Positions 25,645 to 59,050 are shown, counted from the stretch's first letter. The stretch is DNA of 64,000 nucleotides from a virus (IMGVR_UViG_3300031952_004642); one strand, 5' to 3'. A program made the numbers and translations. Notes: a model not told the origin generated them from the letters alone.

Positions 25645-26025
25645 TCATATGCGTTTCCTTATCATCTCATCGGCAAGCTTCATGGTCTGACGCTTCACAT
25701 GACCAAGCGTCTGGGTTATCGGATGCTCGCTATTCCATATATGTGTGGTATCAAAACCAAGAAACCAGAGACTTTTCGGTATGTCGCTATTCGGCAAATG
25801 GCCAAGCACACCAAAATAGGTCAATTCAACGGTTTTTATCCTATCAGTGAAAGCCCAAAGCTTTGCCAGATAATCTCTACGGCTCCTCGGAATGACGGAC
25901 ACATAGCCGTTGTAGCAAACACCATTCGGAGCAACACGCAACGGCACATTCACCAGTTTTACTATGACACACGTTCTGCGCCTGTAAATGAACTTCTCAG
26001 CAATTTCATCGGCGATATCACTCAT
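25645..26025 (-). CDS. Hypothetical protein (126 aa)
   Basis: Minus ORF, preferred over the antisense plus ORF 25531-26118. Confidence 0.4.
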   Translation of the reverse strand: MSDIADEIAEKFIYRRRTCVIVKLVNVPLRVAPNGVCYNGYVSVIPRSRRDYLAKLWAFTDRIKTVELTYFGVLGHLPNSDIPKSLWFLGFDTTHIWNSEHPITQTLGHVKRQTMKLADEMIRKRI

Positions 26026-26846
26026 TCATCAACCACCACCTGCTCAACTGGAACCTGCCTGTCTGGGAAAAGGCGATTATGCAGGGCTGGATTATTGTTT
26101 GAAGCGCACTCTTCCTGATAAGAGCAATATCTGCACTGCCATTTTTCACCTACAACTTTTGGCGGCAGCTTGGACTGCTGCAAATTGGAATTAATCATAT
26201 TCAGGTTCCGCATGACGCTGGCATGCATCTTCTCATCATATCCGAAACGGAAGGCACGCACTGCGAGGTCGGTCTTGTTGATATAGACAAGAAGGCCGTG
26301 ATGAAGGCCTTCGGAATGAAGGTAGGTATTGAGCTGGCATCGATGTGAATATGAAGCGGATTTCTTCATACCGAAGCCTTTCTCGTTGATGGATTTCAGC
26401 TCCACGACGAAAGGCTCGCCCTCATGAGGGACAACGATTATGTCCATCCTGCCGCTTATCACGATGCCAGTCTCCTTGTCGGTGAATTCAGTGCGCCTTT
26501 CCAGAATGACATCCTTGAACATTTTACCATGCTGACCGACAGCAGCCTTCTGCAAATAATCATGTATGATGCTACCAGCCATGAAGATTCTCTGGCTTTT
26601 CGGCGTGAAGGTTTTTGGGCTGATGAATGAATAGTAGACCTGACGATGGCATTTTCCCAAATCAGTCGCCCAGAAATGACCGATGATACGCTTACGCTTC
26701 TCCTGCTTTTCAGTGATATGCTCGTTCAGGAACGCATCGAAGTCGAAATCGGAAAAGCTCATTGGCATAGTCATCCTATCGATACTTTGACGCTTGTATT
26801 TAAATAGAAAATGAAAAAAATGGCGGCAACGCCGCCTGAAATCCAC
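26022..26846 (-). CDS. Cas4/RecB-family PD-(D/E)xK exonuclease with C-terminal Fe-S Cys cluster
   Basis: ATDLGKCHRQVYY; GRMDIIVV..VVELKS (D..ELK); QLNTY; C-terminal CRYCSYQEEC (Cx2Cx5C). Confidence 0.6.
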   Translation of the reverse strand: MDFRRRCRHFFHFLFKYKRQSIDRMTMPMSFSDFDFDAFLNEHITEKQEKRKRIIGHFWATDLGKCHRQVYYSFISPKTFTPKSQRIFMAGSIIHDYLQKAAVGQHGKMFKDVILERRTEFTDKETGIVISGRMDIIVVPHEGEPFVVELKSINEKGFGMKKSASYSHRCQLNTYLHSEGLHHGLLVYINKTDLAVRAFRFGYDEKMHASVMRNLNMINSNLQQSKLPPKVVGEKWQCRYCSYQEECASNNNPALHNRLFPDRQVPVEQVVVDE

Positions 26847-27429: not shown

Positions 27430-27634
27430 ATTTACCTCCTAATTTTATTCTGACAATAAGAATAATTAAAAAACAAATAAAGCACCCGACAGTCATGCCG
27501 AGCAGAGTCCTGAAAAGAGCATCTGCTATGCTGCAAGTCATTTTATTGGAAATGAGACATGCACAGGCAAAAGACCCCAAGAAAAGACCAAATAGCATCG
27601 ATAAAATCAGGCTAATCCTTGACATCATGGACAC
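27413..27634 (-). CDS. Small membrane protein (73 aa)
   Basis: Two TM helices. Overlaps neighbours by a few nt. Confidence 0.45.
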   Translation of the reverse strand: MSMMSRISLILSMLFGLFLGSFACACLISNKMTCSIADALFRTLLGMTVGCFICFLIILIVRIKLGGKYESAN

Positions 27635-29111
27635 CTCCGATTCTTATCTGACGGCACTCGATTAAATCTTTAGGCGAGCATCCAGCAGCACCACCACCAG
27701 CACAGGCACAGGCACAAGCACACGCACTCACACAGGCACAGGAAACGCACCCACCACCATCAGATGAGCCGCCGCCTGTCGAGCCTTCAGAGCCACCACC
27801 ACCAGAAGACCCACCACCGAGATGGTTTATGGCATATGCAGATGAATGGCCAGTCGACGCAATCCATGGATAGAAGATGAACCATGTCAACAGGAAGTCG
27901 TCCTCATCCTTCTTTTTCTTCTCATCGAATTCCTTCTCCTGCCCGAGGCGCTTGGCCTTAATCAGGTCGAACATGCCCTTGTCAAGCCAGATTCCATTAC
28001 ATCCGCTGCAACCATATAACACAAGACCTTCCTTGTGGGTGGCCTTGATTTCAGTACCATTGCATCTCGGGCATTTCGATACATGCTTCCAAGGTGTCAC
28101 GGTGGATTTCACATCAGCATCGAAAACAGCCCAATCGCTCTCCTTGGCTTCTTGTTTGACGAGAGACTCGATTTCACCTTTGTCGAACCAAGCACCACCG
28201 CAGACCGCACAACCATTTATGACAACGCCTTTCACATATTTCCTGTTGATAGGAGAGCCGTCCCTCGGACACTTCATGTTTATATTCCTGACTACAGGGT
28301 CGTCCTCGTAATCTTCGATATGGCTTCCGAGAGAGATGGATGGTGAATCATAAGATTCACTTTTTCCAAGTCCCGTCGCAAATCGCAAGATAACATAAGA
28401 AAGACAAGCAAGCAAACCGATTAGAAGCATTAACGGTATCACATCATTGCTTATGTCAGGAACAGAACCAACAGAATTATCAGAAGGCTGGAGATTTGTA
28501 AACGCCTCGACGGGCATCCTCATCCCGACAGTTTTCTTGTCCCCACGACCAACGTTCTCCCATTCCCATATGACCTTGCCCTCTTTGAATACGGTCGGCT
28601 GGGAAGATGTTATAACAGAAGTGACATTCGTATCATTGGAGATTTGCATGATGACGGAAAGGAACTTGGTCTGAGCCCTGTCCCACCATGATGGAGTGAA
28701 CTGGACAGTGGCATTGCCGTCATAAAGGTAGACGAAATTATGCTGAGTGGCTTTGAAGGTGAACTCAGAATGCTGGCCCGCATAGATGGTATCGGATAGC
28801 TCGACGTACACGCCAGACCAGCCCATCTTGTCGTCATGGCGCACCGAAGAGGCGGAACCACCCCATTCGATTATCTCATAGTCAGCGGTCGGGAGACCAA
28901 TCATGACCCAAGGGATGTTTCCAGAATCGCACTGGATATCAACAGTATATCTGATATCGGCATCACCATTAGAATGGATTGTCAGCTCAGCGATTTCACG
29001 GTTGATTGTATAAGTGCCAGTGTCAGCGAGCACTGAAGACACGGACAGCGCAAAGATGAGCAGCAGCGTGCCCAAAATGACCAGATTCATGTCAAAATCC
29101 ACCATCAGCAT
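27612..29111 (-). CDS. DUF2207/TPM-like membrane protein with two zf-TFIIB-type zinc ribbons and Gly/Ser then Cys/Ala low-complexity tail; start probably at an internal Met near 29111 or 29090
   Basis: Signal/TM at the N-terminus, about 250-aa ectodomain, TM. CPRDG..CAVCGGAWFDKGE and CPRCN..CSGCNGIWLDKGM match the CPxC..CxxCxGxWxDxGE pattern. Tail GGGSSGGGGSEGSTGGGSSDGGGCVSCACVSACACACACAGGGAAGC. The ORF-table start at 29249 overlaps the rSAM gene by 145 nt. Confidence 0.6.
   Translation of the reverse strand: MLMVDFDMNLVILGTLLLIFALSVSSVLADTGTYTINREIAELTIHSNGDADIRYTVDIQCDSGNIPWVMIGLPTADYEIIEWGGSASSVRHDDKMGWSGVYVELSDTIYAGQHSEFTFKATQHNFVYLYDGNATVQFTPSWWDRAQTKFLSVIMQISNDTNVTSVITSSQPTVFKEGKVIWEWENVGRGDKKTVGMRMPVEAFTNLQPSDNSVGSVPDISNDVIPLMLLIGLLACLSYVILRFATGLGKSESYDSPSISLGSHIEDYEDDPVVRNINMKCPRDGSPINRKYVKGVVINGCAVCGGAWFDKGEIESLVKQEAKESDWAVFDADVKSTVTPWKHVSKCPRCNGTEIKATHKEGLVLYGCSGCNGIWLDKGMFDLIKAKRLGQEKEFDEKKKKDEDDFLLTWFIFYPWIASTGHSSAYAINHLGGGSSGGGGSEGSTGGGSSDGGGCVSCACVSACACACACAGGGAAGCSPKDLIECRQIRIGGVHDVKD
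27682..27745. repeat. GCACAG/GCACAC microsatellite-like tract encoding (Cys-Ala)n
   Basis: CACAGGCACAGGCACAAGCACACGCACTCACACAGGCACAGG inside the 3' end of gene 27612-29111. Confidence 0.6.
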
Positions 29112-30418
29112 CTCCTCTCTATTTTGCGATAGCTGAGCGGGCATCCGCCGCCGCATTCCTCGAAATCGAAACAGGATTCGCATTCCTTGGGAGCAAACCC
29201 ATGAGACCTCAGCTTCACGGCAAGCTTGGAATTCCACATCGATTCCCATGAATCGGTCAGGATATTCCCAAGATTCTCATGAGTCCAAGACTGGCAGGGA
29301 ATGACATTCCCATTCGGCTCAATCATCATGTTCACGGAACACGCAGAGCAGGAACGGATACCGAACCCGAGCTTCATCGGATTCAGATTCTTGTAGCATG
29401 TAGGCAAGAACCAGTTGAACGAGACCCCGCCATTTTCGGCGACCTTCTTGGTATTCTTCAGAATCTTGGCAAGAGTGCTTTCGGGAACAGAGTTCACCTG
29501 CATCACATTCGTGGCATCGCCCGAATTGATGAGGGCATTGCAAGAGAACTGCATGACTCCAAGAGATTTACCGAACCGAATCAGGTCGCAAATCATATGA
29601 AAATTCGCATTTGTGATGGTCGTGTTGATGCTCACATCAAGACCAGCATCAACGCAATTCTGGATGCCATGGATAGTCTGTGCGAACGCACCAGCCCTCC
29701 CGACCATCTCATCATGGATGTATGGGTCTGATGATTCGAGCGTTACCTGAACCCAATCGACCTCGGCCACCCTGAGCTCATCAGCGAGCTTTTTGGTAAT
29801 CCGAGTGCCATTGGTTATCACACCGACTGAGAATTTCCTCGCAAATCCTGCGAGCTCTGGAAGGTCTTTCCGCAGGGTGCATTCCCCACCAGTGAAAACA
29901 ATTTGAGGGATTCCTATTTCCCAGAGCTTCGTGATGACCTGCTTCCATTGCACAGTAGAAAGCTCATCAGAGGTCACCTTCCTCGATTCTTTCGAAAGGT
30001 AGCAGTGAGGACACTCATTGTTGCATGAATATGAAAGAGAGATGTCCATCCGATTAGGAGCTTTCCTGTCATTCGGATTGACATATTTCATACCGACAAG
30101 GTTCTCAGGAATCTTGCCAGCAGCTACAGAATTTATGATTCCGAGAAGCTGATTAAGGTCTTGCTTGACACTCACATAACCGACTTTATATTTGCGCACC
30201 ATCTGCTCGACTACCCTGTCCTCGATACCAGAATCAGAAACATAACAAGAATCGATGAAACGGCTCAGAAGCTCCGTCGCAGAACGATTTAGAAAAAGAA
30301 CGAAAGTATTGTTGACCCAGAGCTTGCCCTCATCGGTGCGCAGGTGAAGCCTGACACCATCCACAGTCACATGCTTGAGGACTGCATCCTTCTCAAATAT
30401 TCCACGACGCAAGTTCAT
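29105..30418 (-). CDS. Radical SAM enzyme with C-terminal SPASM domain and about 130-aa N-terminal extension (RRE-like), peptide-maturase-like
   Basis: CNNECPHCY (CxxxCxxC); GGECTL glycine-rich SAM motif. C-terminal SCSACS ... PCQS ... CESC..ECGGGC is SPASM/twitch. Confidence 0.8.
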   Translation of the reverse strand: MNLRRGIFEKDAVLKHVTVDGVRLHLRTDEGKLWVNNTFVLFLNRSATELLSRFIDSCYVSDSGIEDRVVEQMVRKYKVGYVSVKQDLNQLLGIINSVAAGKIPENLVGMKYVNPNDRKAPNRMDISLSYSCNNECPHCYLSKESRKVTSDELSTVQWKQVITKLWEIGIPQIVFTGGECTLRKDLPELAGFARKFSVGVITNGTRITKKLADELRVAEVDWVQVTLESSDPYIHDEMVGRAGAFAQTIHGIQNCVDAGLDVSINTTITNANFHMICDLIRFGKSLGVMQFSCNALINSGDATNVMQVNSVPESTLAKILKNTKKVAENGGVSFNWFLPTCYKNLNPMKLGFGIRSCSACSVNMMIEPNGNVIPCQSWTHENLGNILTDSWESMWNSKLAVKLRSHGFAPKECESCFDFEECGGGCPLSYRKIERRC

Positions 30419-32480: not shown

Positions 32481-32498
32481 ATGATATCATTGGCAGAA

Positions 32499-45588: not shown

Positions 45589-45615
45589 CTCACATAGCCC
45601 ACGAAGGGCTTCTGT

Positions 45616-45690
45616 TTAAACCCCAACAGGCAGGCCCGCCGCTTCACAGCAGGCGAACCTGCCAGCGCAGTGGGTCGGAATCCAATGCAT
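45616..45690 (-). CDS. Possible 24-aa Cys-rich peptide MHWIPTHCAGRFACCEAAGLPVGV (inner ATG of a TTG-started 67-aa ORF)
   Basis: TATA-like GGATTTATAAAG about 40 nt upstream. Three Cys. Lies at the distal end of the rSAM/MBL cluster. Coordinates within 1 nt. Confidence 0.2.
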   Translation of the reverse strand: MHWIPTHCAGRFACCEAAGLPVGV

Positions 45691-45870
45691 GTTGGGAGTG
45701 CTTTCGCACGTTAGATAATTGACATAAGGATTTATAAAGTTATGTATGTTGGTGCGAATGAGGAAATCGGTATGGTGAGAACATATTAATGCATTCCTAG
45801 ACCAGAAACACGAGAGCAAATGATATCCCTGCGAAAACTCCGAACAGAGCCCATAATCCGCACAATATAG

Positions 45871-46332
45871 TCAGCTTTTTTGCCTTATTTTGCATCTAAC
45901 CCCTCCTATTATTAAGCGTGTGAGTAATATAATTCCAGTCCCAAAGAACGCAAATGAAAATCCAAGAACAACCAGACCTGTGGAAAGCACTAAATAATAA
46001 AGAAAACTGGTCATAGCAATTTCATGCAAAGCAGACCTGATTATTTCCGTTACCATGAACCCAGCCAAGCCAGCAAACAGCAAAAAGAACGATTCAAACC
46101 TGCTCATTCAGCACACCAACCCCATAGATACACAGTTCTCCAATCTGTTAACATCATAACAAGTTGGAATACCCAGAATCCAAGAATTCGTTATCAGATT
46201 AGTGCATCTCGTGGTATTCTCATAACGTGGAAACGGATAACTGACTTCAAGAAATACTCCGAAAAACAGAAGGAATAATACACATAAAGCAATGACTATA
46301 ATACAAAAGTTTCTATCAATATTATTGCCCAT
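45871..46332 (-). CDS. Two small membrane/Cys proteins (45871-46107, 78 aa; 46108-46332, 74 aa with 6 Cys)
   Basis: Hydrophobic N-termini. Adjacent start/stop. Immediately downstream of the MBL gene. Confidence 0.45.
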
Positions 46333-46346
46333 TAGTTCACCACATC

Positions 46347-47252
46347 TTATTTTCGAGTCAGGTACATAACGTTCTTATCGAAGGCGAAACATAATTCACC
46401 TTTTTCATAAAGATGACTTACGAAACCGCTAATCACGGTCTTCATCAACACATACCGCTGGAGACTGTCTATTGGCGCACTGTAGCCATCACAAACAGTC
46501 CTCAGCAAATCATCGAAAGTCATCTTGCCCCGAAGAGAATTCCTCACATAATCCTCGACCGAATCCACGACTTCCTCATGGGCGGAAACAACGCTGGCGA
46601 TATCACCGAAAGGCTCGCCATGGGATGGCACATAAAGCTGGTAGTCGCTCTGGCGAAGCCATTCAAAGGTCTTCCTCGTTGAGCCGATGTCCATGTAAAA
46701 AGGTATCTTATGCTTCGCCAAGACCTCTTCTCCAAAAACACTATCAGCGCAGAACAGGACATTCTTGCCGACACCAATCCCGATTTGATTCGGACTATGG
46801 CCCTGCAAAGGAACGACATCAAGAAGGTAATCATGCCACATGAAACGACCAGCAGGCAGGACAGCAACATTGCGGGTCGGCTGGGCCTGAAGGAACTTGT
46901 TCCTCAGCTCTTTCGGGACATCTGGCGAACCGAAAAGGTACATCGGCTCGAGTTCTGGTGATGAAATCAAAGCAGCCTCGACATCGGGAGCCAAGAAGGC
47001 CATTTGAGGATGGACACGCTGCAAATAAGCGTTGCCGCCGCAATGGTCAGCATGATGATGCGTGCTTATGACGGTATGCAGACCAACATTCTTCCCGACA
47101 GCAATCCTGTCGATTTTCTTGGCGGCATCATCATCAAGCCCGCTGTCAATCAGAAGAGCATCACGGTCTATGCAGACCAAGCCAACGTTAGTATGCGAGG
47201 CTAGGTAATAAACTCTCCCCTTTCCAGTCGTCTGAATATCACTGAGTTCCAT
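46347..47252 (-). CDS. MBL-fold metallo-hydrolase
   Basis: VISTHHHADHCGGN is the HxHxDH motif; later His/Asp ligands are present. Confidence 0.8.
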   Translation of the reverse strand: MELSDIQTTGKGRVYYLASHTNVGLVCIDRDALLIDSGLDDDAAKKIDRIAVGKNVGLHTVISTHHHADHCGGNAYLQRVHPQMAFLAPDVEAALISSPELEPMYLFGSPDVPKELRNKFLQAQPTRNVAVLPAGRFMWHDYLLDVVPLQGHSPNQIGIGVGKNVLFCADSVFGEEVLAKHKIPFYMDIGSTRKTFEWLRQSDYQLYVPSHGEPFGDIASVVSAHEEVVDSVEDYVRNSLRGKMTFDDLLRTVCDGYSAPIDSLQRYVLMKTVISGFVSHLYEKGELCFAFDKNVMYLTRK

Positions 47253-47256
47253 ATTA

Positions 47257-48666
47257 TCACACCAGAGTATAACAATGCTTCATCTTCGGCTCGATGCGAC
47301 CATCGACCAACTGCGCAAACAGGCCATCGGACATCACCAGAGTCTTAGGTGATTTAGCGAGTTCGGCAAAGAGCTTCACCTTATCAGGCAGCAAAAAGTT
47401 CTCAGTCCCACAGCCAGCCGCATGATATGTATTATGCAACCAGCTAGCCTTGCAGACGCACCCACCAGCACACGAAGGCAGGAAGATATGCCTCGAGCAT
47501 TGGTCAATCATCGTCGGGTCACGTTTCAGCACATCACCATAGACGGCTGTCTTAGTGAAAACACCATTATCAGAAAGCGTTCCAACCACATGCTTCTTCT
47601 GGCCAACGAGCTCCCAGCATTTATAGACATCCCCGAACGGGTCAATGATATAAGAGCCATCAGCAATGCTGGAACATGGTAACGCCTGAGGCGAAGGCCT
47701 GATATCAAGCCTGAAGCCCCTCTCATGTGCAGCACGCCACAATTCTGGCATCACGCTGAAAAGCTTTGTATCAGGGATGACATGATTCTTGTATGCATCA
47801 CAGGCCTCAGTGAAGGCAGTTATATAGCAGAAATCAGTGTAGATATGAGTCAAGTCCTTCGATTTCAACTGGTCAAGCATATTAATCATCGTAGGGTAGG
47901 TCTCATTAGTGAGGCTTATCCTTATGTGAGTCTCTACGTTCGTGCCCCGAACGAAAGAAAGCACACCATCCGTCACATCATCGAACGAGCCCCTCTTATC
48001 CTTCACATAAAACCTCATCTTGTTATGCATGTCCCTATCACCATCGATGGGCACTTGCAGCCTCATCCTGAACTGGTCAGCCCATTCGATGAATTCTTTG
48101 GTAATCAGGGAACCGTTAGATAGCATCTGCAACTTGAATTTCATGCCAACATCATTAACCCATTCACTGAGCTCATCTGTCGTTCGCATCGCATCATAAG
48201 CTCTCAACATTGGCTCACCACCGTAAAGGATGAGCTCCAGAGTCTTCGGATTGCGCTCAAGCACAGTCATCTTCACGAATTCCTTGAAAGAAGATATCAT
48301 AGACGGACTCATTGACTTGAAACCATGAATCTTCTTTCCGGCTTCACCACGGCCCTGATAGCAATATGGGCATGCGAAATTGCAGTCATAAGTCAACAGC
48401 ATGTTGAACTCGACCTTCTCTTTTCCAGATTTCCAGTGGTTATGGATGCCCCTGTATACAGCAAGCTCATCTGTATCAGGCGAGACAAGAAACCCCTGCT
48501 CATGCATAATCTTCTCGAGGTCGGCATCGAGGTTTTTCGTGTTCAGGTCAGCGACGAACTTTGAATTGCATCTCAATATCGCACCCGAGAGCGTGTTGTA
48601 AATCAGAACCAGATTAGTGCTCGATGGAACCGTGAGATTATACCTCGAAGGCTTCAGCTTTCTCAT
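47257..48666 (-). CDS. Radical SAM/SPASM-domain enzyme (peptide-maturase-like); start likely Met-15 at 48666
   Basis: CNFACPYCY; GGEPML. C-terminal CSSIADG..CWEL ... CSRH..CAGGCVC. N-terminal YNLTVPSSTNLVLIYNTLSGAILRCN is an RRE-like leader-binding region. TTTATAAAC lies 23-31 nt upstream of that Met. Confidence 0.8.
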   Translation of the reverse strand: MRKLKPSRYNLTVPSSTNLVLIYNTLSGAILRCNSKFVADLNTKNLDADLEKIMHEQGFLVSPDTDELAVYRGIHNHWKSGKEKVEFNMLLTYDCNFACPYCYQGRGEAGKKIHGFKSMSPSMISSFKEFVKMTVLERNPKTLELILYGGEPMLRAYDAMRTTDELSEWVNDVGMKFKLQMLSNGSLITKEFIEWADQFRMRLQVPIDGDRDMHNKMRFYVKDKRGSFDDVTDGVLSFVRGTNVETHIRISLTNETYPTMINMLDQLKSKDLTHIYTDFCYITAFTEACDAYKNHVIPDTKLFSVMPELWRAAHERGFRLDIRPSPQALPCSSIADGSYIIDPFGDVYKCWELVGQKKHVVGTLSDNGVFTKTAVYGDVLKRDPTMIDQCSRHIFLPSCAGGCVCKASWLHNTYHAAGCGTENFLLPDKVKLFAELAKSPKTLVMSDGLFAQLVDGRIEPKMKHCYTLV

Positions 48667-48750
48667 TATGATTAATTTCATAGTAAGATTTATAAACTTT
48701 CGCACCAATTTACATTTTCACTATATACAAGTCCAACAGTTAACTGTTAT

Positions 48751-49782
48751 TTAGTATTTAGCACCAAGGAAGCTTTTGATAGCTCCACCGAAGAAATAGA
48801 CGAGAGCAAGCACGACAAAAACGACACCTATAGCTAAAATGAACACAGTGACTGGCTGGGTGATTCCAGTCAGGAAACCCGATATCCCATATCCTACAGA
48901 AGTGAGCATCTGAGTCATCGGCATCTCCTCGAGGATTTCCGCAGAGACATCATAGCCGCTTCCAGAATCAGCAAGGACATTCGGCATTACGATGAACGCA
49001 AATAAGAACGGAAGCAGAATGGAAATATAGCCAACACCATGCCTGAAAGACTGATTCGCTGAACGCTTCCATCTGACGAACATCAGGCAAGCCGCACACA
49101 TGATTACGATTAAAGCTCCAGCAATAAAAAAGACGGCCCCATCATTTCCACTGGAAACTGGTTCAGGCTTTGGCGGCACTGGAAAGCTCGTCACGACCGC
49201 TGGCTCATAGAAGCCCGCACCCAGTTCATTATCCGCATAACGGAATGATGTCATAGGCTGGCCAGTTGCCTTGAGAACCGCATGGATATCATTCGTGCCG
49301 ACCTGATTCTGCTGGCCAACGACAATAGCCATCCAACCCCTGATGCCTTTCTTGAGAACGACATTCTTGGCTGTCGCCTTATCGACATACGCAACCTCGA
49401 AAGGAACATCTGCGAAATCACCGACAGCATAGTGGATATCATCAGGCAGCATTATCGTGAATGTCATTTTCTTGGAGCTGAACGGCGCAACTGTGACCAT
49501 CTGGCTTTCCAAGTAGATAAGAGGCGATTCGACCAGAATCGCAACATCAACAGGATTCTCGCCATTGTTCTGGAGCTCGAAAGACCAGTAATGAGGGCTG
49601 CCTATCTCATTGAGAGGCACATAAACGACCTTTTGGCCATAGTATTCAACGAGCCCGAGACCAAACGCAGAGCCGCTCAACAACACCCAGACAAACGATG
49701 CCATCAGGGCTAACCTGATACCAGCGTTAATCACCTGAGTCCTCGCTTTAGGAGGAGATATACCATTCCTGTCCGACATCAT
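48751..49782 (-). CDS. Membrane protein (343 aa): signal/TM, ectodomain, C-terminal polytopic segment
   Basis: Hydropathy pattern. Its start overlaps the giant-gene stop by about 35 nt. Confidence 0.55.
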   Translation of the reverse strand: MMSDRNGISPPKARTQVINAGIRLALMASFVWVLLSGSAFGLGLVEYYGQKVVYVPLNEIGSPHYWSFELQNNGENPVDVAILVESPLIYLESQMVTVAPFSSKKMTFTIMLPDDIHYAVGDFADVPFEVAYVDKATAKNVVLKKGIRGWMAIVVGQQNQVGTNDIHAVLKATGQPMTSFRYADNELGAGFYEPAVVTSFPVPPKPEPVSSGNDGAVFFIAGALIVIMCAACLMFVRWKRSANQSFRHGVGYISILLPFLFAFIVMPNVLADSGSGYDVSAEILEEMPMTQMLTSVGYGISGFLTGITQPVTVFILAIGVVFVVLALVYFFGGAIKSFLGAKY

Positions 49783-52700
49783 TCACGTACACCTGCTTGG
49801 CTGTTTCTGAAGGCAGAGCTGACGGGTCTATTCCGAAGTACAAGGTCAGCAGACCAGTGCCCGACCCACGCCTGTCGAGATAAGCGCCATCGATGACAAC
49901 GGCAATCCCATCCAATAGTCCAGTTGAAGTTGCCCATATTCCGGTAGGCCCAGCCTTGAAGACATTCCCATCCACTGGCAGCAGATAAGTCGGCTGGCTG
50001 ACACCAACGAGACTATAGGCGGTTATCGTTATGTTTGTCTGGTTCACATTGCCAGTGTTCCTGAGAGTCACATAATCAGGGAAAGTCGGGCCATCATTTA
50101 ACATATATGAACCGAAAGAGATGGTGCTTGTATCGCTGACCCAAGCCTTCAGCTCATTGTAAGTCAGGCTGCCGATTAGCGATGTGTTGCACAGCAGGCC
50201 CAAATCACACACATGAAGCTCGGCTGCCCAGATTCCAGCAGCATAGTAATACTGCATCGGCAAAGTGCATTCGAACCTTCTGGCAGTCGCACTGATGTTG
50301 TAATTCCTGCACGAGGAATTGATAACGCTCTCGGAGCCTTTATATATTTTCCCATAATGCACTGCGCCAGTCACGCCAGACACATCATCCGCACTGAAGT
50401 TGACCGACACATACACAACAGAATCCTCGAGTGGAGTCGCAATCGGCTGCACTGACACATCATAAATGAATGGTGGGCTGGTATCAACCTTGAACATCAC
50501 ATCAACACTCTTCACATTGAATGCAGTGTCGTTGGCAGTTACCCTGAGATAGTATGTACCATCTGGAAGGCCCGTCGCCACGAAATTGAAATCAGTCAGG
50601 TTGCCAGTGTTGTTGAATCTGGAATCATTGATGAACACCAAATCGAGATGAGCATCATACACAACACCGAATATTGTCACATTCCCGACTGGATAGACAG
50701 TGCCATTGACTGGATAATATACATCAACAACGGGCAGCGAATTATCATCATCCTCCCAGATGTTTGGATTCGTACCATAAAAATTAATCTCCTGACCATC
50801 AGTGAACCCACCCTCATCGGTGTCTGCACTGAACGGATTCGTGTAATAAGTGAACAGCTCAACGAAATCAGTCAGATTGTCAGAATCGGAATCCATGCCC
50901 TGCAAGGTCGCATTATCAGGCAGGTTGAATATCACGAATGCCTGCTGGTATCTGCCGAACATGACATTTGTCCACATCGCATCAAGATGCAGTCCATAAT
51001 CATAAATATCATCATCCGAAGTGAATTGAATCTCAGAAAATTCCTTGAAATATACACCAAGACTCTCAGGATATGTCGCATTGAAGATATTCGCAGCAAC
51101 GCCCTCAATCACATCATTTTCCTGAGTCAACATTGTCGACGGGTTCGCATGAAAATCCCTTGTCATGGCGTTAAGGTCATACTGCCAACTGAAAATCGCA
51201 TTGTAATCCATAACGTAATTCTGAGCATGCCAGAAGTATATGCTCCACCAGCTATCTGAATGCCAGTAATGGGTATAATAGTTCCTGATTCCATTTGAAG
51301 GGATGATAGTCTCATTCCACCAGAAATCCAAGAATGCAAAACAGTACCTGTACTGGTCAGTCCCTTCTGGAGAATCAGCATTGAAACCATCAACAGGCTG
51401 ACCGCCATAAGGTATCTCCTCGCCAGACGGCAGGCGAATCTTGTTCTTGTCAAAAGTATGGACACCCCTTGTCGGATTAAGGACACCAGTATCGAAAGAC
51501 TCACCATTCCATATCCCACCCCTGAACAGCTCACCAGCATCATAAAGAGTGCCAGACCTTTCAGGGCCGAGTCCAGACTCACGGCCACCACCATAATATT
51601 CCACCATCATGCATTCATAGAGGTCTCCACCAGATTCGATGCACCACCTATAGACGGAATAATTGAACCTCGGCATTCCTTCCATGTAAAGAAGCTTGTA
51701 TTCCAGAGGCTCTGGAATGCAACCAAATGAAACGTATTTGCGCTCATTCTGATTCGGCTGGTTGAGCGGATGACTCAAGCTCGGCTTAGTCCAGTTTATC
51801 ACCATCATCGTATCATTCCAGACCTCGAAAGTGTACCAGCTCTGGACGAGATTCTCCTTTTCTATATACCACATATCTGAAGTGTTGGACATCGACTCAA
51901 AAGCCCAGACAGTCCCGTTCCACCATCTCAGACGAAGATTACCAGAGCCAGTCACATTGGTCTCTATCCATATGGAATCCTCACGCTGGCAGGAACCTTC
52001 CCTATACCCAGAGCAGAGCCTGACCCTGTTGTCATCATCATCAGTAATCGGACTGCCAGCAAAGCAGAATTCTGGAACCCTGAACTCATTCTCATACGCA
52101 TCGGAATATCCAGTTGACTGGTCACCCTCGGCAACAGCCCTGTAAAAGAACGTTTTCCCATAAACTACTGGAACAATGAAACAACTAACCATTGGAGCAG
52201 ACACGATTCCAGTCACCTTGCTGGACTCATTGAAAAACTCATTCAAAGTGTCCTCTTCCCAATACTGGAAATACAGGTCAACAGTCTGAGAATCTGCATC
52301 AGTCAGGTTGAGACAGACAGTCACCTGCTCATTCGGTCTGTCCTCTGTATAATTCAGGAATTCAACAATCGGAACGGAAGGCAGGCTGCCAAGCGTTATG
52401 TTGGCATCAGCATATCCACAGGTTTCTTCAGCACCCGAAACACAGGACATTGCACGTATATAATAAGTTGAATTTTCCTGAAGACCTGAAATATTGAACT
52501 TCGGGATTGCGGACTCATTGAAATAACCAGTCATATTCTCACCAACGAACCACGGATTGAACGAATACCTTACCCAGTTATCAGAGGTCGGGTCAACATC
52601 CCATGAAACATTTATGGCAGTATCGTTTATCGCCTCAACCGTAAGATTAGATAAAACAGCCAACGGGTATTCGAGTTCAATTTCAGGGCCGATGGTCACA

Positions 52701-55700
52701 TTCTGCCAGACACCTGAATAAGACAGCGACTGGGACTCCGAGGAAGCGCCAGATTTCCCGTAATACATCCAGAATTTCATCTCATAATCACCATCAAGAT
52801 GGTCGAGATAGACTGTGAGCCAAACATTTGCCTGATAGAACCATGTCATCTCTATATGGTAAACATGGTAATAATTCGTGGCAGACCTGAGAGTATACCA
52901 GCTCTGGTCTGAATTATTCTGGCACTGCCATACTACCAGCGTATCATTATAGCTCGCAAGAGCCCTGAACTTAAGCTCAGTATCACCATCCCAGCAATCT
53001 GTCGGAACATCCATCCACCAGCCATAGCCCTCGCCATCCTTCACATTAACCTTGCTCGAAGGCTTCGAACCACTCGGCTTCGTGAAGTTGAAATAAACTG
53101 AAGCATTCGTCTCAACGAAAGGCGAGCCAAAGGTGTTCATGTCACCGTCATAAGTGTGATTGCAGTTCACCCACACACCATCACAACGAGTCGCATTCGG
53201 AATTATCTGGGTAGCCGTCCCTCCAGCCTGAGTCACATTAATATATTGCAAAGTATAATTGAGCTTCGAGACTTCCTCGAAATCAACGAACCTGAAATCA
53301 GCACCAGTATCCGGCTCACCAAGACTTCCGAAATTGAAACCCTCATCATCCAGCGTCACGTTCACTGCATAGCTTTCCAAATCGGAAGGCACATCCTTGA
53401 CAGTAACGAGTCTCTTCTTCGGGAAATCGGTAAGCTCATCAAGCCAGCCCTCAGTCCTCACGAGAAACGAATATTCTCCACCAATCACACCCCATATATC
53501 TCCAGAATAATGGGTGAAATTATAAACGGTATTCCATTTCAGGAGCTCATGATTCGCAGTCCACTCATCGGAAGTCGTCAGAGCAGTCCTTATCGTCTCA
53601 GACTGTTCGAGGATTTTCAGCGAAATCCATTCATTGTCTGGCGCATTGTCCCATTTGAAAGTGAGATAATTCGTACCCTTATCATGGACACGCATGTTCA
53701 GCGCACGTGGCTCATCATTTGCCATGAACTGATAGATTCCAGATGTCGTCACGTAAATCCCATCGGTCACATTGACGAACCATGTGTAATTCTGGAAAAT
53801 CGTGAAATTGATGCTCCAGACGACCTGAGCAACCCCGCCAGATGCCACAGCATAATCAACGCCTATCAGTGCATCATCAGTGCCATTGTAGAAATACACA
53901 TCCATCACATCGGCATCAGGGTCTGTCACTGTAATCTGTAAAGAGACAGGAGGAATCACACCACTGCCATTGTAAGGCTCCTCATTTGTCGGCTGGTCTG
54001 GAGGCGAAGAAGTGAACGCACCATACGATGAATTCGTTCCCGCATCATTTGATTCGTTGGCGAACGTGAAAATGAACACACCAGAAGGCAGTCCGCTGAC
54101 AGCCCATGTGTAATTGCAGGACAAGTCAGAATCACAGCCAGCATCAGCCATCGTCACCGATGAATCGATGAGCTCCTCACCAACACCCTGAACAGTGCTC
54201 CAGTGAATCTGGAAATCGCCGTAATCATTATCTCCACGTGTCCAGTTGATGTAATAAGAAAATCCATTCCTGAGAATCTGGCCACCACTGTTCGGCTCGA
54301 GAGCTGTAATAGGTTTCGGATAAAACTTGTATGGAATGCCAGCGACACCAGCACGGATGCCAGTCAGACCCTGAAGGCCGCCAGAAACGAAACTGATTTC
54401 ATTGCTATAAAAAGTGTTGCCTGTCGAGCTTAGCAGGTAGACCGCAGCACCTGCACCACCATCTCCCTTATATGTCAGTCCGTCATTGTGAGCATTGCCT
54501 CCACGACCGCCACTCACATTATATATAGAGTTATAGCCAACGAAGTTCGTACCTGATGAATTAAGCATGATTCCCGCACCGATTCCACCAGTCCCGCCAT
54601 GAGCATTCTGGTTCGTCGAACCGCCAAGACCACCTTCGATTTCCGAAATGTCATTGCTGGACACATTATTACCAGAGCCGCCGAACACATAAACGCCCGC
54701 CCCATAAGAGCCTATCCCGCCAAAACTGCCAACCATGTCACCAGATTCACCGATATAATTGGCAATCGTATTGCCTATGACATCCGTGTTGTCGGTATCT
54801 ACGAGTGCGATTTTACCGTAATTTGTTGTCGATGCAAACGAAGTCAGCGTAAGGCCCGTAATCGAAAGGCCGTTCTTATTATACAGGTAAACGATATAAT
54901 CGCTGTCCTGAATGTTGAAGACAGATGTGCCGCTTCCAAGGTCATTCGCCATTGAGTCGCCCTCCAAGAAAATGCCAAACGCAGTGCCATTAGAACCATC
55001 CTTCGCAGTGTAATCAGCGGCATATCCCTGCAAGCCGCCAGAAAGCGAGCTGATAACGTTATTCTGTATTATATTGTCTTCCGATGCGCCGCCAAGATAT
55101 ATGCCATAAGCGTCCATTCCCGAGCTCGCAAGAGCATAGTCGCCGCCAGATGCACCATGTCCACCAGTCACATTAGAAACGATGTTATAAGACACATTAG
55201 ATGCAGTCACATTCCACAGGTAGATTCCAATGCCGTGAGTGCCATGATAACCGCTGCTATTGTAAGATGGATTCGTAAAACCAGAAAGGCCATTGACATA
55301 ACGGAAGGTGCTCCCAGTCACGTTGACATTGACAGAATTCACAATGGCAATCTTTCCAAGGTTCATCGGGCTCACATCCGATATCAACGATAAACCGCTA
55401 ATGACGAGACCACTCTTCCCATATATGTATATAATGTAATCTCCATCAACGGTATTGAAATCAGCAGCCGAAACACCAAGGTCGTTGTCTGTCAAAGCAT
55501 AAACTGGCTCCGAGCCAGTAGCAGACAGAGAACCCGGCTCAAAGTAAACACCATATCCGCTTTGATTGAAAGAACCATAGACATCACTGCCGACCTGAAG
55601 GCCACCAGCACCAGCATATCCACCACGCACAGAGCTCATCGCATTCTTCTGGATGGTATTTCCCGAGACAGTGTTCGAAAGGAAGACTCCCGCACCGATA

Positions 55701-58700
55701 CCACCCGTTCCACCAGTCCTCGAGCCTGAACCAGCAAAGACCACACCATATCCACCGAGGCCGCCAGACACATTGGTCATGTTATTCAGCGTCACGGTGT
55801 TGCCGCTCGCAGAAGACGCAAAGTAGATAGCTGAACCTGCACCACCAACATTCCCTCCGCCACGACCCCTGTAATGGCTGCCTTCACCACCTGTTATGTT
55901 GGAAAATACATTCAAAGAGATGAAATTATCGGAGGATGCCGCATAAACACCAGCACCGATTCCACCAGAAGTCGCAGTGCTGCTTCCACCGCCACACACG
56001 GAATCGCTGAGACCACCTGCGATTTCGCTGATTATGTTGCTGGACACATTATTGGCAGAGCCAGTGATAAGAAAAGCAGCACCCGTTCTCCCACTTGTCG
56101 CTTCAGCGCATGGCGGCACAGATGCAACAATTCCATGGACATGGTTTTCAGTGAATAAGCCACCAGTTGACGCAGCGATGATTCCGTAGCTGTTGTAAGT
56201 CGAGTTGATTCCACCGCTGACGTTGCAATTCTGGATTGTCACATTAGGCACAGTCACATTGAAACCACCATCAATCAACGTGCTGTTCACGAACTGGCAG
56301 ATTATCGTGACCATCTTGTCCACAACAACGCTCTCAGGATAAGTTCCATTGTAGATTCCAATGACATCACCATCGCTGGCAGCATTTATCGCCGACTGTA
56401 TGCTCTGACCATTCACAACAAGCTGGTCATAAGATGCAAGCTGAAGATTGATATGAGCATCACTTGAAAAGTTGAACGCAGTAGAATTATCATAATAACC
56501 GAAAGCACCTGTTGCACTGAGAGTGTACGGCTGTTTATACGCAGTCGCTCCACTGTCATAATAGTATTCAGTCTGCGGAGTCGTTCCAGCATTCACCACT
56601 GAAGAATATACGGTATTTCCAAAAACGTCTTTCAGAGTCACAGAATTCGGAACTCCAACAACATCGTAAATCACATTCCATTTCCTGAAGTATTTGGAAG
56701 TCCCAGTTACATCGTTTATCATCGGAGCAGTAACATTAAGCAGAGTAAGATTGTTCGAACCAGAAAGATTGATGTAACGATTTATCTTGGAATTATTAAT
56801 CATGTTTTCTGTTCCACCCCAATCGAAAACGTATTCAGATGTCATTCCATTGAACGTATTATAGTTAGAAGATGCATCCATCGAGATTGTATAGGCAACA
56901 ATGTTCTCAGCACTTTTTCCATCACAGCTCTGTCTTAGTATCTGACCAAGATTCCCGTTGCTCATGTTGACGCAATCACTAATGACCTGTCCGTAAGGAT
57001 GCACTGAGCCGTTTCCTCCATTGGATTTTGACGCTATCAGGTTTCCGAGTCCGAGAGTCGTCGGCAATCCCATTGACGGCATTTCCCATCCAATAGTACT
57101 GTTGAAATAATTTCCAGTTCTTGTTCCAGTAGTTGCAGAAGGAAAACGTATCCCAATATAGCATCCAGTATAATTACTATTCACCGTATCAAATGATGCT
57201 GAAGAAGTTCCTCTCACACAATAGGTCTTTCCATAACCATCGATAGTAAAATTGTCAGCAACATAAAAAGTTTGCAGATTATTTATGTTTCCATATAATA
57301 TGGAATCCTGAAAAATAAGCCCTGAACCTGTAGCTGGTGGAATACTGTTAAACGTATCTGCACTCAGATGGCTACCATTTATAGCGCTGCCTATGAAAAT
57401 TGCATAACATGGATTTGAATTTGCACTAAAAGCACCTATCAAATGTGAATTAAAAAAATAACCCCATCTTGGAATGAACTGTGTAGTCACACTGTTCCCA
57501 TGATTATCAGAATAATACACAACATTGTAAAAATAATAGTTTTTATGAGCGCCACCAATATAGCTGAACTGGATACCCACGTTGTCAGGGTCTATTGTGA
57601 GATTATAGACATTAACATTATTTGAGACAGTATCATGGTATTTTAGTAAATATGAAGAATCGCCTGAAAGAGTATATGAATTTCCGTAAACATTTATGCC
57701 ACTTCCAGCAAAATATATCCCTTCTGCTGTTGAGCATGACCAATCCCTAGTGAAATTAAATCTTCCCCCAGCATACATCCGCTCTCCACAGTACAGTGGA
57801 TAAACCCTTCTTCTATCAGTCACAAAAAGGTTGCCAGTATGATTCACATAAACCTGAATGTCTGTCGGATTTGATGTGAGCCAAGTCAGATTAAGATAGC
57901 AGTAATCGCCATTAACTGTCATCGTTTCATTTGTGTCATAGCCCTCATCAGTCCAAGTGAGAATGCAATTATCTATCCCATTTCCAGATGGCTGGCTGAC
58001 ATTTACATAGATATATTTCCCTTCAGTGTAACTCGCATTTTCAGGGGTCGGAGAAACGAACACTGGATACAGGTCTACAGTTGAAAATGAATCTGTCCCA
58101 ACAGTGTTATTATAGGCAGCCTTTATCTCATCAGCCGACAGGCTGTAATTGTAAAACCTCACCTCATCAATATAGCCGACAAAACCAGAAGTTCCATCAA
58201 CATATGCACCGACTGTCACATTCTCACCTGTCAACAGGTTCGGATTTATTACACCAGTCCAACCTTCGAGTTTTCCATCAGTATAGACATACGCAGAACC
58301 AGCATCATACACAAAAGCACATAAATGCCAATTATTGTCTGTTATCGTCGTCGTGCCTGTCACATAAACATACCCCGGCCCATATCCACTTATAGCGCAT
58401 TTATTAGAATCCACCACCAACGCAGTTGATTTGCCAGTACCTGAAATTCCGACAGTCACTACATATTTGTTGTTCGTCGATGTCTTGACCCAAGCCATGA
58501 CAGTGTGGTCATTATCGTCAGTTGGCCCATTTGTAATAGATACCTGCAAAAATTCCGCAGAGGTGAATTCAAAAGCATTTCCTACTTTGCCACTCACCAA
58601 TCCATTGGAAATTCCATAAACAGTGTTGCCATATGGGCTCGAATCCACATATTCGTTCATATGCATTATCGAAAGAGCCTGTGAACCCCAAGGATTCAGG

Positions 58701-59050
58701 TAGTCGCTTGCGTTCCCCTCATCAACATCCATAGGCAGCTTAATCGTCTCCGTTACATCAGAACATTCATAGGTTGACGAATCATTGAAACGAAAATATC
58801 CAACAGTTTGTGTTATTGTACCGACCGTGAAATTGCAAAAAATTATCTGTTTTTCAGCAAAAATATTGACAAAAGAATCTTTAAGCAAAACTGGCAAAGA
58901 AACCGCCGATGACCCATAGCTTGTCGCATTTATCGCATATCTGTATACGTAGCTGTCGAGCGCTGAAACAGAACTAAACAGGCAAGAAATGGCTATAAAG
59001 AAAGCGATAGATACCAAAATCCTGCTGTTTCCGACCATAAAACCCTTCAC
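49748..59050 (-). CDS. Giant (3100 aa) secreted surface/adhesin-like protein with LamG/ConA-like lectin domain and multiple right-handed parallel beta-helix (NosD/disaggregatase-like) repeat blocks
   Basis: N-terminal signal peptide. GNAFEFTSAEFLQV ... HTVMAWVKT ... NWHLCAFVYDAGSAYVYTDG ... VRFYNYSLSADEI is a LamG domain. Long runs of G/N/S/T-rich repeats (GGxGG.G..G..V.L.S...N.) are typical of beta-helix arrays. Uninterrupted 9.3-kb ORF. Confidence 0.85.
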   Translation of the reverse strand: MKGFMVGNSRILVSIAFFIAISCLFSSVSALDSYVYRYAINATSYGSSAVSLPVLLKDSFVNIFAEKQIIFCNFTVGTITQTVGYFRFNDSSTYECSDVTETIKLPMDVDEGNASDYLNPWGSQALSIMHMNEYVDSSPYGNTVYGISNGLVSGKVGNAFEFTSAEFLQVSITNGPTDDNDHTVMAWVKTSTNNKYVVTVGISGTGKSTALVVDSNKCAISGYGPGYVYVTGTTTITDNNWHLCAFVYDAGSAYVYTDGKLEGWTGVINPNLLTGENVTVGAYVDGTSGFVGYIDEVRFYNYSLSADEIKAAYNNTVGTDSFSTVDLYPVFVSPTPENASYTEGKYIYVNVSQPSGNGIDNCILTWTDEGYDTNETMTVNGDYCYLNLTWLTSNPTDIQVYVNHTGNLFVTDRRRVYPLYCGERMYAGGRFNFTRDWSCSTAEGIYFAGSGINVYGNSYTLSGDSSYLLKYHDTVSNNVNVYNLTIDPDNVGIQFSYIGGAHKNYYFYNVVYYSDNHGNSVTTQFIPRWGYFFNSHLIGAFSANSNPCYAIFIGSAINGSHLSADTFNSIPPATGSGLIFQDSILYGNINNLQTFYVADNFTIDGYGKTYCVRGTSSASFDTVNSNYTGCYIGIRFPSATTGTRTGNYFNSTIGWEMPSMGLPTTLGLGNLIASKSNGGNGSVHPYGQVISDCVNMSNGNLGQILRQSCDGKSAENIVAYTISMDASSNYNTFNGMTSEYVFDWGGTENMINNSKINRYINLSGSNNLTLLNVTAPMINDVTGTSKYFRKWNVIYDVVGVPNSVTLKDVFGNTVYSSVVNAGTTPQTEYYYDSGATAYKQPYTLSATGAFGYYDNSTAFNFSSDAHINLQLASYDQLVVNGQSIQSAINAASDGDVIGIYNGTYPESVVVDKMVTIICQFVNSTLIDGGFNVTVPNVTIQNCNVSGGINSTYNSYGIIAASTGGLFTENHVHGIVASVPPCAEATSGRTGAAFLITGSANNVSSNIISEIAGGLSDSVCGGGSSTATSGGIGAGVYAASSDNFISLNVFSNITGGEGSHYRGRGGGNVGGAGSAIYFASSASGNTVTLNNMTNVSGGLGGYGVVFAGSGSRTGGTGGIGAGVFLSNTVSGNTIQKNAMSSVRGGYAGAGGLQVGSDVYGSFNQSGYGVYFEPGSLSATGSEPVYALTDNDLGVSAADFNTVDGDYIIYIYGKSGLVISGLSLISDVSPMNLGKIAIVNSVNVNVTGSTFRYVNGLSGFTNPSYNSSGYHGTHGIGIYLWNVTASNVSYNIVSNVTGGHGASGGDYALASSGMDAYGIYLGGASEDNIIQNNVISSLSGGLQGYAADYTAKDGSNGTAFGIFLEGDSMANDLGSGTSVFNIQDSDYIVYLYNKNGLSITGLTLTSFASTTNYGKIALVDTDNTDVIGNTIANYIGESGDMVGSFGGIGSYGAGVYVFGGSGNNVSSNDISEIEGGLGGSTNQNAHGGTGGIGAGIMLNSSGTNFVGYNSIYNVSGGRGGNAHNDGLTYKGDGGAGAAVYLLSSTGNTFYSNEISFVSGGLQGLTGIRAGVAGIPYKFYPKPITALEPNSGGQILRNGFSYYINWTRGDNDYGDFQIHWSTVQGVGEELIDSSVTMADAGCDSDLSCNYTWAVSGLPSGVFIFTFANESNDAGTNSSYGAFTSSPPDQPTNEEPYNGSGVIPPVSLQITVTDPDADVMDVYFYNGTDDALIGVDYAVASGGVAQVVWSINFTIFQNYTWFVNVTDGIYVTTSGIYQFMANDEPRALNMRVHDKGTNYLTFKWDNAPDNEWISLKILEQSETIRTALTTSDEWTANHELLKWNTVYNFTHYSGDIWGVIGGEYSFLVRTEGWLDELTDFPKKRLVTVKDVPSDLESYAVNVTLDDEGFNFGSLGEPDTGADFRFVDFEEVSKLNYTLQYINVTQAGGTATQIIPNATRCDGVWVNCNHTYDGDMNTFGSPFVETNASVYFNFTKPSGSKPSSKVNVKDGEGYGWWMDVPTDCWDGDTELKFRALASYNDTLVVWQCQNNSDQSWYTLRSATNYYHVYHIEMTWFYQANVWLTVYLDHLDGDYEMKFWMYYGKSGASSESQSLSYSGVWQNVTIGPEIELEYPLAVLSNLTVEAINDTAINVSWDVDPTSDNWVRYSFNPWFVGENMTGYFNESAIPKFNISGLQENSTYYIRAMSCVSGAEETCGYADANITLGSLPSVPIVEFLNYTEDRPNEQVTVCLNLTDADSQTVDLYFQYWEEDTLNEFFNESSKVTGIVSAPMVSCFIVPVVYGKTFFYRAVAEGDQSTGYSDAYENEFRVPEFCFAGSPITDDDDNRVRLCSGYREGSCQREDSIWIETNVTGSGNLRLRWWNGTVWAFESMSNTSDMWYIEKENLVQSWYTFEVWNDTMMVINWTKPSLSHPLNQPNQNERKYVSFGCIPEPLEYKLLYMEGMPRFNYSVYRWCIESGGDLYECMMVEYYGGGRESGLGPERSGTLYDAGELFRGGIWNGESFDTGVLNPTRGVHTFDKNKIRLPSGEEIPYGGQPVDGFNADSPEGTDQYRYCFAFLDFWWNETIIPSNGIRNYYTHYWHSDSWWSIYFWHAQNYVMDYNAIFSWQYDLNAMTRDFHANPSTMLTQENDVIEGVAANIFNATYPESLGVYFKEFSEIQFTSDDDIYDYGLHLDAMWTNVMFGRYQQAFVIFNLPDNATLQGMDSDSDNLTDFVELFTYYTNPFSADTDEGGFTDGQEINFYGTNPNIWEDDDNSLPVVDVYYPVNGTVYPVGNVTIFGVVYDAHLDLVFINDSRFNNTGNLTDFNFVATGLPDGTYYLRVTANDTAFNVKSVDVMFKVDTSPPFIYDVSVQPIATPLEDSVVYVSVNFSADDVSGVTGAVHYGKIYKGSESVINSSCRNYNISATARRFECTLPMQYYYAAGIWAAELHVCDLGLLCNTSLIGSLTYNELKAWVSDTSTISFGSYMLNDGPTFPDYVTLRNTGNVNQTNITITAYSLVGVSQPTYLLPVDGNVFKAGPTGIWATSTGLLDGIAVVIDGAYLDRRGSGTGLLTLYFGIDPSALPSETAKQVYVNDVGQEWYISS

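Follow-up and report, generated by a model that had tools for sequence, protein, structure and literature searches.

Here we analyse a two-gene cassette on a 64,000-nt stretch of viral DNA (IMGVR_UViG_3300031952_004642), referred to as the window in the following, with all positions counted from its first letter. An original prediction made from the sequence alone had described an uncharacterised maturation module at 45616-49782. In order along the minus strand, it comprised a giant surface protein, a membrane protein of 343 aa, a radical S-adenosylmethionine enzyme with a SPASM domain (rSAM), a metallo-beta-lactamase (MBL)-fold hydrolase, two small membrane proteins and a Cys-rich open reading frame (ORF) of 24 aa. 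Each of these ORFs was found at its place on the minus strand, and the gene order is confirmed. Our results support an uncharacterised peptide-maturation module whose conserved unit consists of the rSAM and MBL genes. They also draw attention to a conserved C-terminal tail of the rSAM protein, which had been overlooked and is a better substrate candidate than those named before. The features of the cassette are as follows:

47257..48708, minus strand: longest ORF of the rSAM/SPASM protein, with a TTG start at 48708 and the stop codon at 47257..47259
47257..48666, minus strand: maturase with RRE-like, radical-SAM and SPASM parts and a fused putative precursor tail, 469 aa from the ATG at 48666
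48412..48666, minus strand: RRE-like domain for peptide binding, from residue 1 to about residue 85 (AlphaFold model and alignment to CteB)
48361..48384, minus strand: CX3CX2C radical-SAM cluster motif CNFACPYC, invariant in alignments A1 and A2
47407..47676, minus strand: SPASM auxiliary-cluster region (TIGR04085 match, conserved Cys)
47329..47361, minus strand: hypervariable linker from SPASM to tail, tail positions -34 to -24 (column entropy 2.8-3.6 bits in 35 sequences, with indels)
47290..47328, minus strand: leader-like tail segment DGLFAQLVDGRIE, semi-conserved, with the consensus GD[LFY]x[LIF][QE]x[IV][ED]G[RK]Q[EQ]
47260..47289, minus strand: putative core PKMKHCYTLV, with the consensus P-x-[MI]-[SRK]-H-C-Y-V-L-V followed by a stop
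46347..47252, minus strand: MBL-fold binuclear metallo-hydrolase, beginning 4 nt past the rSAM stop

The rSAM enzyme and its MBL-fold partner

The most likely start codon of the rSAM protein is the ATG at 48666, which gives the N-terminus MRKLKPSRYN, because homologues begin with MKxSRYN and a TTTATAAA box stands about 26 nt upstream (48689..48696 on the minus strand, by direct reading of the sequence). This box suggests that the gene has a putative promoter of its own, from which a leaderless mRNA would be transcribed. The identical octamer also stands ahead of a structured-RNA/DUF932 unit (45731-45738) and may represent a promoter consensus of this element.

The predicted domains were recovered by profile searches, with 36.9 bits for Pfam PF04055 (Radical_SAM, cut-off 29.5) and 37.9 bits for NCBIfam TIGR04085 (SPASM, cut-off 27, residues 348-424). 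In the AlphaFold model (predicted local distance difference test, pLDDT, 92.9; predicted template-modelling score, pTM, 0.91), strands at residues 10-14, 19-24 and 30-34 and helices at 35-43, 48-57 and 67-79 form the three strands and three helices typical of an RRE, the recognition element for peptides that ribosomes synthesise and that are modified post-translationally (RiPPs). Together with the full-length alignment to CteB, this arrangement upholds the RRE-like N-terminus that had been proposed; profile searches with hidden Markov models gave no PqqD match.

Foldseek ranked CteB first among known structures (E = 2e-19, full length including the RRE, template-modelling (TM) score about 0.65-0.70), followed by TigE, anSME, ChlB, SuiB and SkfB. 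CteB is also the best sequence match in the PDB (2.4e-15), at 18% identity. The top NCBIfam families are maturases of peptides with Cys-containing cores, and each score lies below the curated cut-off. CefB (NF038107) was best with a full-length match of 276 bits (cut-off 600), followed by TIGR04463 (195 bits, cut-off 525, also full-length), the geopeptide and Clo7bot families (136 and 130 bits) and PapB (118 bits, cut-off 340). Lower scores were obtained for anSME (TIGR03942; 77 bits, cut-off 349), SCIFF (67 bits, cut-off 425) and MftC (TIGR03962; 36 bits, cut-off 265). As judged from these profiles and the model, the enzyme is similar to RiPP maturases that contain an RRE and form thioethers (CteB, CefB-like) and not to PqqE, MftC or anSME. 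The profile scores place it outside any cofactor-biosynthesis family, as the original prediction had required. PADLOC returned a partial viperin-core match for the rSAM only and none for the MBL.

The MBL fold of the downstream protein is corroborated by a Lactamase_B score of 60.3 bits. Residues H65, H67, D69, H70, H152, D170 and H211 do not vary across 31 sequences. Because it retains the HxHxDH motif together with the His, Asp and His ligands further downstream, the protein is predicted to be a canonical binuclear hydrolase of the LACTB2/glyoxalase-II type and not PqqB. Catalytic motifs are intact in both the rSAM and the MBL protein. The best folds for the MBL model (pLDDT 89.8) were LACTB2, TTHA1429, several Burkholderia MBLs and PqsE (E = 9e-15 to 1e-10, TM 0.6-0.7). 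The protein stayed under every curated NCBIfam cut-off searched, and its score for the anti-Pycsar family Apyc1 (PF23023) was 16.4 bits at a cut-off of 50.

About 44 close rSAM homologues with 41-64% identity were found, the named ones originating from genome bins of Aenigmarchaeota and Micrarchaeota. Among 1.84 billion representatives at 50% identity, the clade is made up of two clusters (P0006 and P0241, 778 and 704 bits), and the next relative scores 379 bits. The MBL gene is located immediately downstream of the rSAM gene in all ten fetched loci of this clade that extend downstream of it (tblastn; nine independent contigs, counting L002/L003, L004/L005, L006, L007, L088, L168, L169, L170 and the window), so the proposed pairing is real and conserved. 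Twelve further rSAM/MBL pairs sit on contigs identical in size. Beside distant rSAM relatives, this MBL was found in none of about 160 loci. Scans of viral contigs with the single rSAM protein and then with alignment A1 gave no close relative. The A1 scans of genomes and metagenomes were swamped by the generic motif CNFxCPYC and added only L008 and L088 as close loci; the distant loci from these scans served as the negative control for MBL linkage.

Since the MBL gene always adjoins the rSAM gene, whereas the giant gene, the 343-aa ORF, the 74-, 78- and 32-aa ORFs and the DUF932 gene lack homologues in the related loci, rSAM and MBL constitute the conserved unit, most likely a two-gene unit of tiny (DPANN) archaea as far as the sequences tell. 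In L004 the pair lies among housekeeping genes of a small archaeal genome. The cassette also travels on mobile elements, namely the virus- or plasmid-like element of the window and the conjugative context of L002 with TrwC, TraG and ArdA as neighbours, and it occurs in a bacterial-type context in L170. This joint movement of the pair onto mobile elements and into a bacterial-type context argues for a functional coupling of the two proteins. A gene with a YbaK/tRNA_edit domain is found beside the MBL gene in L006 (2605-3111) and L007 (7458-7994), on different strands; this adjacency may be mere shared synteny.

The rSAM is always accompanied by the MBL, but not vice versa. The MBL family, with more than 250 homologues at 35-44% identity, is far wider than the rSAM clade and extends over DPANN archaea, Archaeoglobales, Halanaerobiales, Thermotogae and Thermodesulfatator. 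A lone MBL gene is present in Selenihalanaerobacter, in Pseudothermotoga and on one contig of Archaeoglobales, and a neighbour-joining tree does not separate such genes from the paired members but mixes the two. These lone members bear on a further explanation of the strict adjacency, namely that the rSAM matures the neighbouring MBL protein in the way anaerobic sulfatase maturases act on a neighbouring sulfatase. Cys168 of the MBL is invariant and Cys71 nearly so, and anSME is among the structural relatives of the rSAM. However, lone bacterial and Archaeoglobales MBLs keep the same Cys residues without an rSAM, anSME has no RRE and its profile reaches only 77 of the 349 bits, and the conserved peptide described below would be left unexplained. 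We therefore regard maturation of the MBL protein as very improbable.

The C-terminal tail in fused and split forms

All 35 tail-bearing members of the clade end in P-x-[MI]-x-H-C-Y-[VT]-L-V directly before the stop codon, and none of these members departs from P, H, C, Y, L and V at the respective core positions. In the alignment of these tails, column entropy is 0-1 bit in the core versus about 3-3.6 bits in the linker. AlphaFold models the leader-like segment as a beta-hairpin (pLDDT 94 for residues 451-460) and the final nine residues as flexible (pLDDT 59). The core motif occurs once per locus, always at the end of the rSAM or just behind it; a six-frame motif search of 2.05 Mb of fetched loci gave a single chance match outside the expected sites.

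The sister clade (P0037 and P0039-P0043, proteins of 441-445 aa) is devoid of this tail. Instead, a separate ORF of 29 aa is located between the rSAM and MBL genes in L006 and L007, the two readable split-clade loci from which the split form is known. The peptide of L007 is MEKNQKAKFEIEVIEEKSKPKISHCFVLV; that of L006, MIKVKKENFEIEVIEKYIKPTISHCFVLV, lies in frame and directly past the rSAM stop codon. The separate ORF ends in SHCFVLV, with Phe replacing the Tyr of the fused core, and the leader-like tail segment aligns with the N-terminal part of the free peptides. A putative cognate leader and core are thus encoded with the enzyme, as a fused tail in 35/35 members and as a separate ORF in 2/2 loci, and would be its substrate. 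The tail is also absent from more distant rSAM relatives, whose C-termini are like those of the split clade, and fusion therefore looks like the derived state. A search for free peptides with a 42-aa tail profile matched only that of L007, because small ORFs are seldom called as genes.

A relic of a precursor ORF was found in L174 (4876-4981), reading MEYRKILITRQI-stop-NKIVKDEWRQQPKMFHCYVLV-stop with an in-frame TGA, directly upstream of an intact MBL gene and in the absence of an rSAM gene. The archaeal contig is 759 kb long, and a gene for a surface protein of at least 1581 aa precedes the relic by about 75 nt.

Other candidates for a precursor were considered as well. An internal translation start for the tail was rejected because an in-frame Met is present in some tails only and at varying positions, and the window offers no usable ribosome-binding spacing. 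A 57-aa ORF between rSAM and MBL in L168 encodes an unrelated acidic peptide, and a precursor search near the Collinsella CefB-like gene (L014) gave nothing informative. P0047, a relative of 450 aa at about 30% identity, carries a different short C-terminal tail ending in IAEDLEGCSFKLS, which could represent a further core with Cys fused to its maturase, here in a related clade.

A second feature distinguishes the tail-bearing enzymes. In the window rSAM, His takes the place of the second Cys in the SPASM motif CX2CX5CX3C (C-S-R-H, window 47467-47478; C404-H407 when counted from the TTG start). In the fused clade (n = 34) this position is His in 30, Asp in three and Cys in one sequence, whereas all six split-clade proteins and 130 of the 133 distant relatives retain Cys. 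Fusion of the peptide hence correlates with the loss of a canonical cluster ligand.

This correlation fits the idea that the tail, or the free 29-aa peptide, is a structural or regulatory element, such as a ligand of an auxiliary Fe-S cluster or a pseudo-substrate lid, and that the true substrate lies elsewhere. The invariant His-Cys of the tail, the ordered hairpin modelled for its leader-like part and the lack of conserved export and protease genes are in line with such a role. On the other hand, a subunit of 29 aa translated separately would be unusual, and a variable linker followed by a leader-like strand and an invariant C-terminal core corresponds to the layout of a RiPP precursor. The enzyme also retains an RRE-like domain, and the known role of an RRE is leader binding. 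Decay of the peptide in L174, where the rSAM has been lost, is compatible with either explanation. Taken together, we consider a purely structural or regulatory tail unlikely.

Neighbouring genes and the wider element

The remaining features of the locus are listed here:

49748..59050, minus strand: giant gene, 3100 aa
48751..49782, minus strand: membrane ORF of 343 aa, overlapping the end of the giant gene by 35 nt
46108..46332, minus strand: ORF of 74 aa
45871..46107, minus strand: ORF of 78 aa
45797..45895, minus strand: one-helix ORF of 32 aa, absent from the original prediction
45797..46332, minus strand: the 74-, 78- and 32-aa membrane ORFs as a group, abutting or overlapping and restricted to this element
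45616..45690, minus strand: ORF of 24 aa, MHWIPTHCAGRFACCEAAGLPVGV, with a TTTATAAA box upstream at 45731..45738

As targets of the module, the original prediction had proposed the 74-aa or the 24-aa Cys-containing ORF or the giant surface protein upstream, the latter by analogy with anaerobic sulfatase maturases, and it had regarded the module as tied to this giant adhesin. In support of such a link, the genes are tightly packed in the window, and ORFs of more than 800 codons are found at a distance of up to 8 kb from the module, both in the window (49748-59050) and in four of eight other independent archaeal loci: L002 (2-4471), L004/L005 (14938-18522 in L004), L088 (12362-15559) and L174 (1-4797). 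However, no similarity was detectable among the giant proteins near the modules, and their strand and distance differ. The recurrence of large genes near the cassette is not taken as evidence of linkage.

In detail, neither the giant protein nor the 343-aa protein, the 74-, 78- and 32-aa ORFs or the DUF932 protein has a homologue in any related locus. Conservation was thus found for the rSAM-MBL pairing but not for the small ORFs, which could possibly be co-transcribed with the cassette while lying outside its conserved part. Laminin_G_3 is the sole domain found in the giant protein. The formylglycine motif [CS]x[PA]xR was not found in its sequence (0 versus 0.66 expected by chance), and with the low anSME score of the rSAM a modification of the sulfatase-maturase type is not supported.

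The 24-aa ORF exists and is indeed preceded by a TATA-like box; its role as a Cys-rich target is not sustained. A GC-rich stretch of 141 nt that includes it (45580-45720, minus strand) is predicted to fold with -67 kcal/mol (z = -5.76, none of 200 shuffles as stable), and no Rfam family reached the gathering score there. Because this stable fold lies between the TTTATAAA box at 45731..45738 and the ATG of the DUF932 gene (45579), the region is more likely a structured 5′ leader or a small RNA than a peptide gene. The rSAM gene, in turn, is preceded by a TATA-like box of its own. In view of these findings, we judge it highly improbable that the module acts on the giant protein or on the small Cys-containing ORFs. 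The rSAM-MBL cassette is most likely functionally separate from them, and the conserved tail corrects the assignment of the target.

The window as a whole looks like an archaeal mobile or viral element of virus- or plasmid-like type. At 207-2518 on the minus strand, Rfam detects ten tRNA genes, three of which are 111-142 nt long and so contain introns, and ARAGORN detects six; this array suggests an archaeal element of virus- or plasmid-like type with tRNAs of its own. Also encoded are a phage-type topoisomerase, DUF932, a Cas4-like nuclease, a TFIIB zinc-ribbon protein and transposases. A first rSAM/SPASM gene of the window is found at 29105-30418 (minus strand; best families NirJ2, AhbD and MftC with 137-117 bits, all below cut-off) and overlaps the end of a gene (27612..29249) whose product of 545 aa bears two zinc ribbons of the TFIIB type. 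The same part of the window (26854-33469) contains a membrane-stress-type cluster with LemA, a TPM-domain protein, an SPFH/Band 7 protein and an NfeD-like ClpP-type protease, and the Cas4-like nuclease is encoded nearby (26022..26846).

Proposed maturation route and comparison with known systems

The tail and its partners are best read as a minimal RiPP or peptide-cofactor unit with a maturase-fused precursor, whose chemistry can be proposed by analogy. We hold it to be probable, on balance, that the C-terminal tail of the rSAM is the enzyme's own substrate and is modified by radical chemistry before processing by the MBL protein. The tail would be modified in cis or by a neighbouring copy of the enzyme. 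Its leader-like segment would dock on the RRE so that the core reaches the active site, where a 5'-deoxyadenosyl radical would introduce a modification around the invariant His-Cys-Tyr/Phe. As its most likely type we tentatively suggest, in analogy to CteB and PapB, a thioether that links the sulfur of the Cys with a carbon of some residue nearby. The MBL hydrolase would then act on the product, most plausibly by hydrolytic release of the modified C-terminal peptide from its carrier.

Several points weigh against this route. The core contains only one Cys, and an acceptor residue cannot be assigned. In the fetched loci, the pair has no conserved companion among transporters, immunity genes or recognised leader peptidases, and a review of RiPP leader peptidases never names an MBL-fold enzyme. 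The wide distribution of the MBL family, its lone members and their intermixed tree positions imply that the activity of the MBL is not specific to this peptide. If the substrate is fused, each enzyme molecule can give no more than one product, and the exchange of the SPASM Cys for His in the fused clade could point to a structural role of the tail. Docking of the tail on the RRE is proposed from confidence values and secondary structure, and the case for the tail as substrate is built on sequences and models.

A single-turnover output would suit a cofactor needed in small amounts, and it is conceivable that the cassette yields a peptide-derived redox cofactor similar to pyrroloquinoline quinone (PQQ) or mycofactocin, which the MBL protein uses or finishes instead of acting as a peptidase. 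The location of the pair among housekeeping genes in small archaeal genomes (L004), the MBL as the more widespread, core partner and the combination of rSAM-SPASM, MBL and a Tyr-containing peptide speak for it; the original prediction had already remarked on the parallel to PqqE and PqqB. PQQ biosynthesis (PqqA/PqqE/PqqB) and the mycofactocin pathway (MftA/MftC) also rely on RRE-bearing rSAM-SPASM enzymes that act on short peptides with key residues near the C-terminus, and an MBL-fold protein takes part in the former. However, the analogy fails at the level of the enzymes, whose homology is confined to the superfamily. PqqE is outside the 25 best NCBIfam families and the 50 best PDB folds of the rSAM, and PqqB outside the 25 best families and 50 best folds of the MBL, which retains the binuclear HxHxDH site in its canonical form; no window-wide search for PqqC was made. 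MftC reaches 36 of the required 265 bits, and the tail has neither E-x3-Y nor a C-terminal Val-Tyr but ends in V-L-V. In addition, Phe replaces the Tyr in the split clade, the Glu upstream of the core varies, and lone MBLs function without the cassette. We consider such a cofactor pathway improbable.

A bolder extension of the self-modification scheme is that a self-sacrificing rSAM turns its own C-terminus into a small Cys-centred product that serves as a cofactor or signal, and that the MBL protein releases or uses this product. It would then be a mobile pathway not recognised before, characteristic of DPANN archaea together with their genetic elements, and the first rSAM RiPP system with a fused precursor and an MBL processing enzyme. 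We regard this extension as speculative and rather doubtful. In the literature searched, we found no description of an rSAM/SPASM with MBL and precursor, of RiPPs in DPANN archaea, of a fused rSAM precursor or of an MBL-fold partner.

If the tail is the substrate, the cassette would represent a new architecture of rSAM peptide maturation, in which the substrate is fused to the enzyme and a natural split sister form exists. The fused and split forms would be a ready system for comparing modification in cis and in trans, and the MBL-fold hydrolase would be a new type of partner enzyme. Furthermore, a defined and very short product around HCYVLV would come from organisms that are not culturable alone and are assumed to be nearly devoid of secondary metabolism.

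Among known systems, the closest likeness is to CteB/thermocellin and the SCIFF-ranthipeptide maturases (PDB 5WGG, 5WHY) and to PapB, which share with the window enzyme an N-terminal RRE, the radical-SAM core, twin SPASM clusters and a Cys-containing core in the peptide. The window enzyme differs from them by its low identity (18%) and by scores below the PapB and SCIFF cut-offs, by one core Cys instead of several, by the fusion of precursor and enzyme, and by an MBL partner in place of the usual protease and transporter. CefB, the Cys-every-fifth maturase (NF038107), and TIGR04463, the very-Cys-rich peptide maturase, are bioinformatically defined families that give the top full-length scores. 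These scores remain far under the cut-offs, the tail with its single Cys lacks a Cys-every-fifth or Cys-rich pattern, and the loci of the distant relatives do not contain this MBL. In cyclopropyl synthases of the TigE type, a Gly-Tyr-Trp motif supplies a Tyr ligand to auxiliary cluster I (PMC10878394). Although TigE is the second-best fold for the window rSAM, this motif was not seen on visual reading of its translated sequence.

The MBL protein shares the MBL core and a C-terminal helical domain with the hydrolases LACTB2, TTHA1429 and PqsE. At 14-19% identity, their substrates (RNA, thioesters) give no direct clue to that of the window MBL. The borosins (autocatalytic precursors of the OphMA type), whose enzyme is an N-methyltransferase and not a radical-SAM enzyme, show no homology to the cassette. 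They nevertheless offer the architectural counterpart of the proposed arrangement, with a core at the C-terminus of its own modifying enzyme (PMC7878506) and with split forms as well (bioRxiv 10.1101/2021.12.24.474128); fused and split forms thus occur within one family there, as in the rSAM clade described here.

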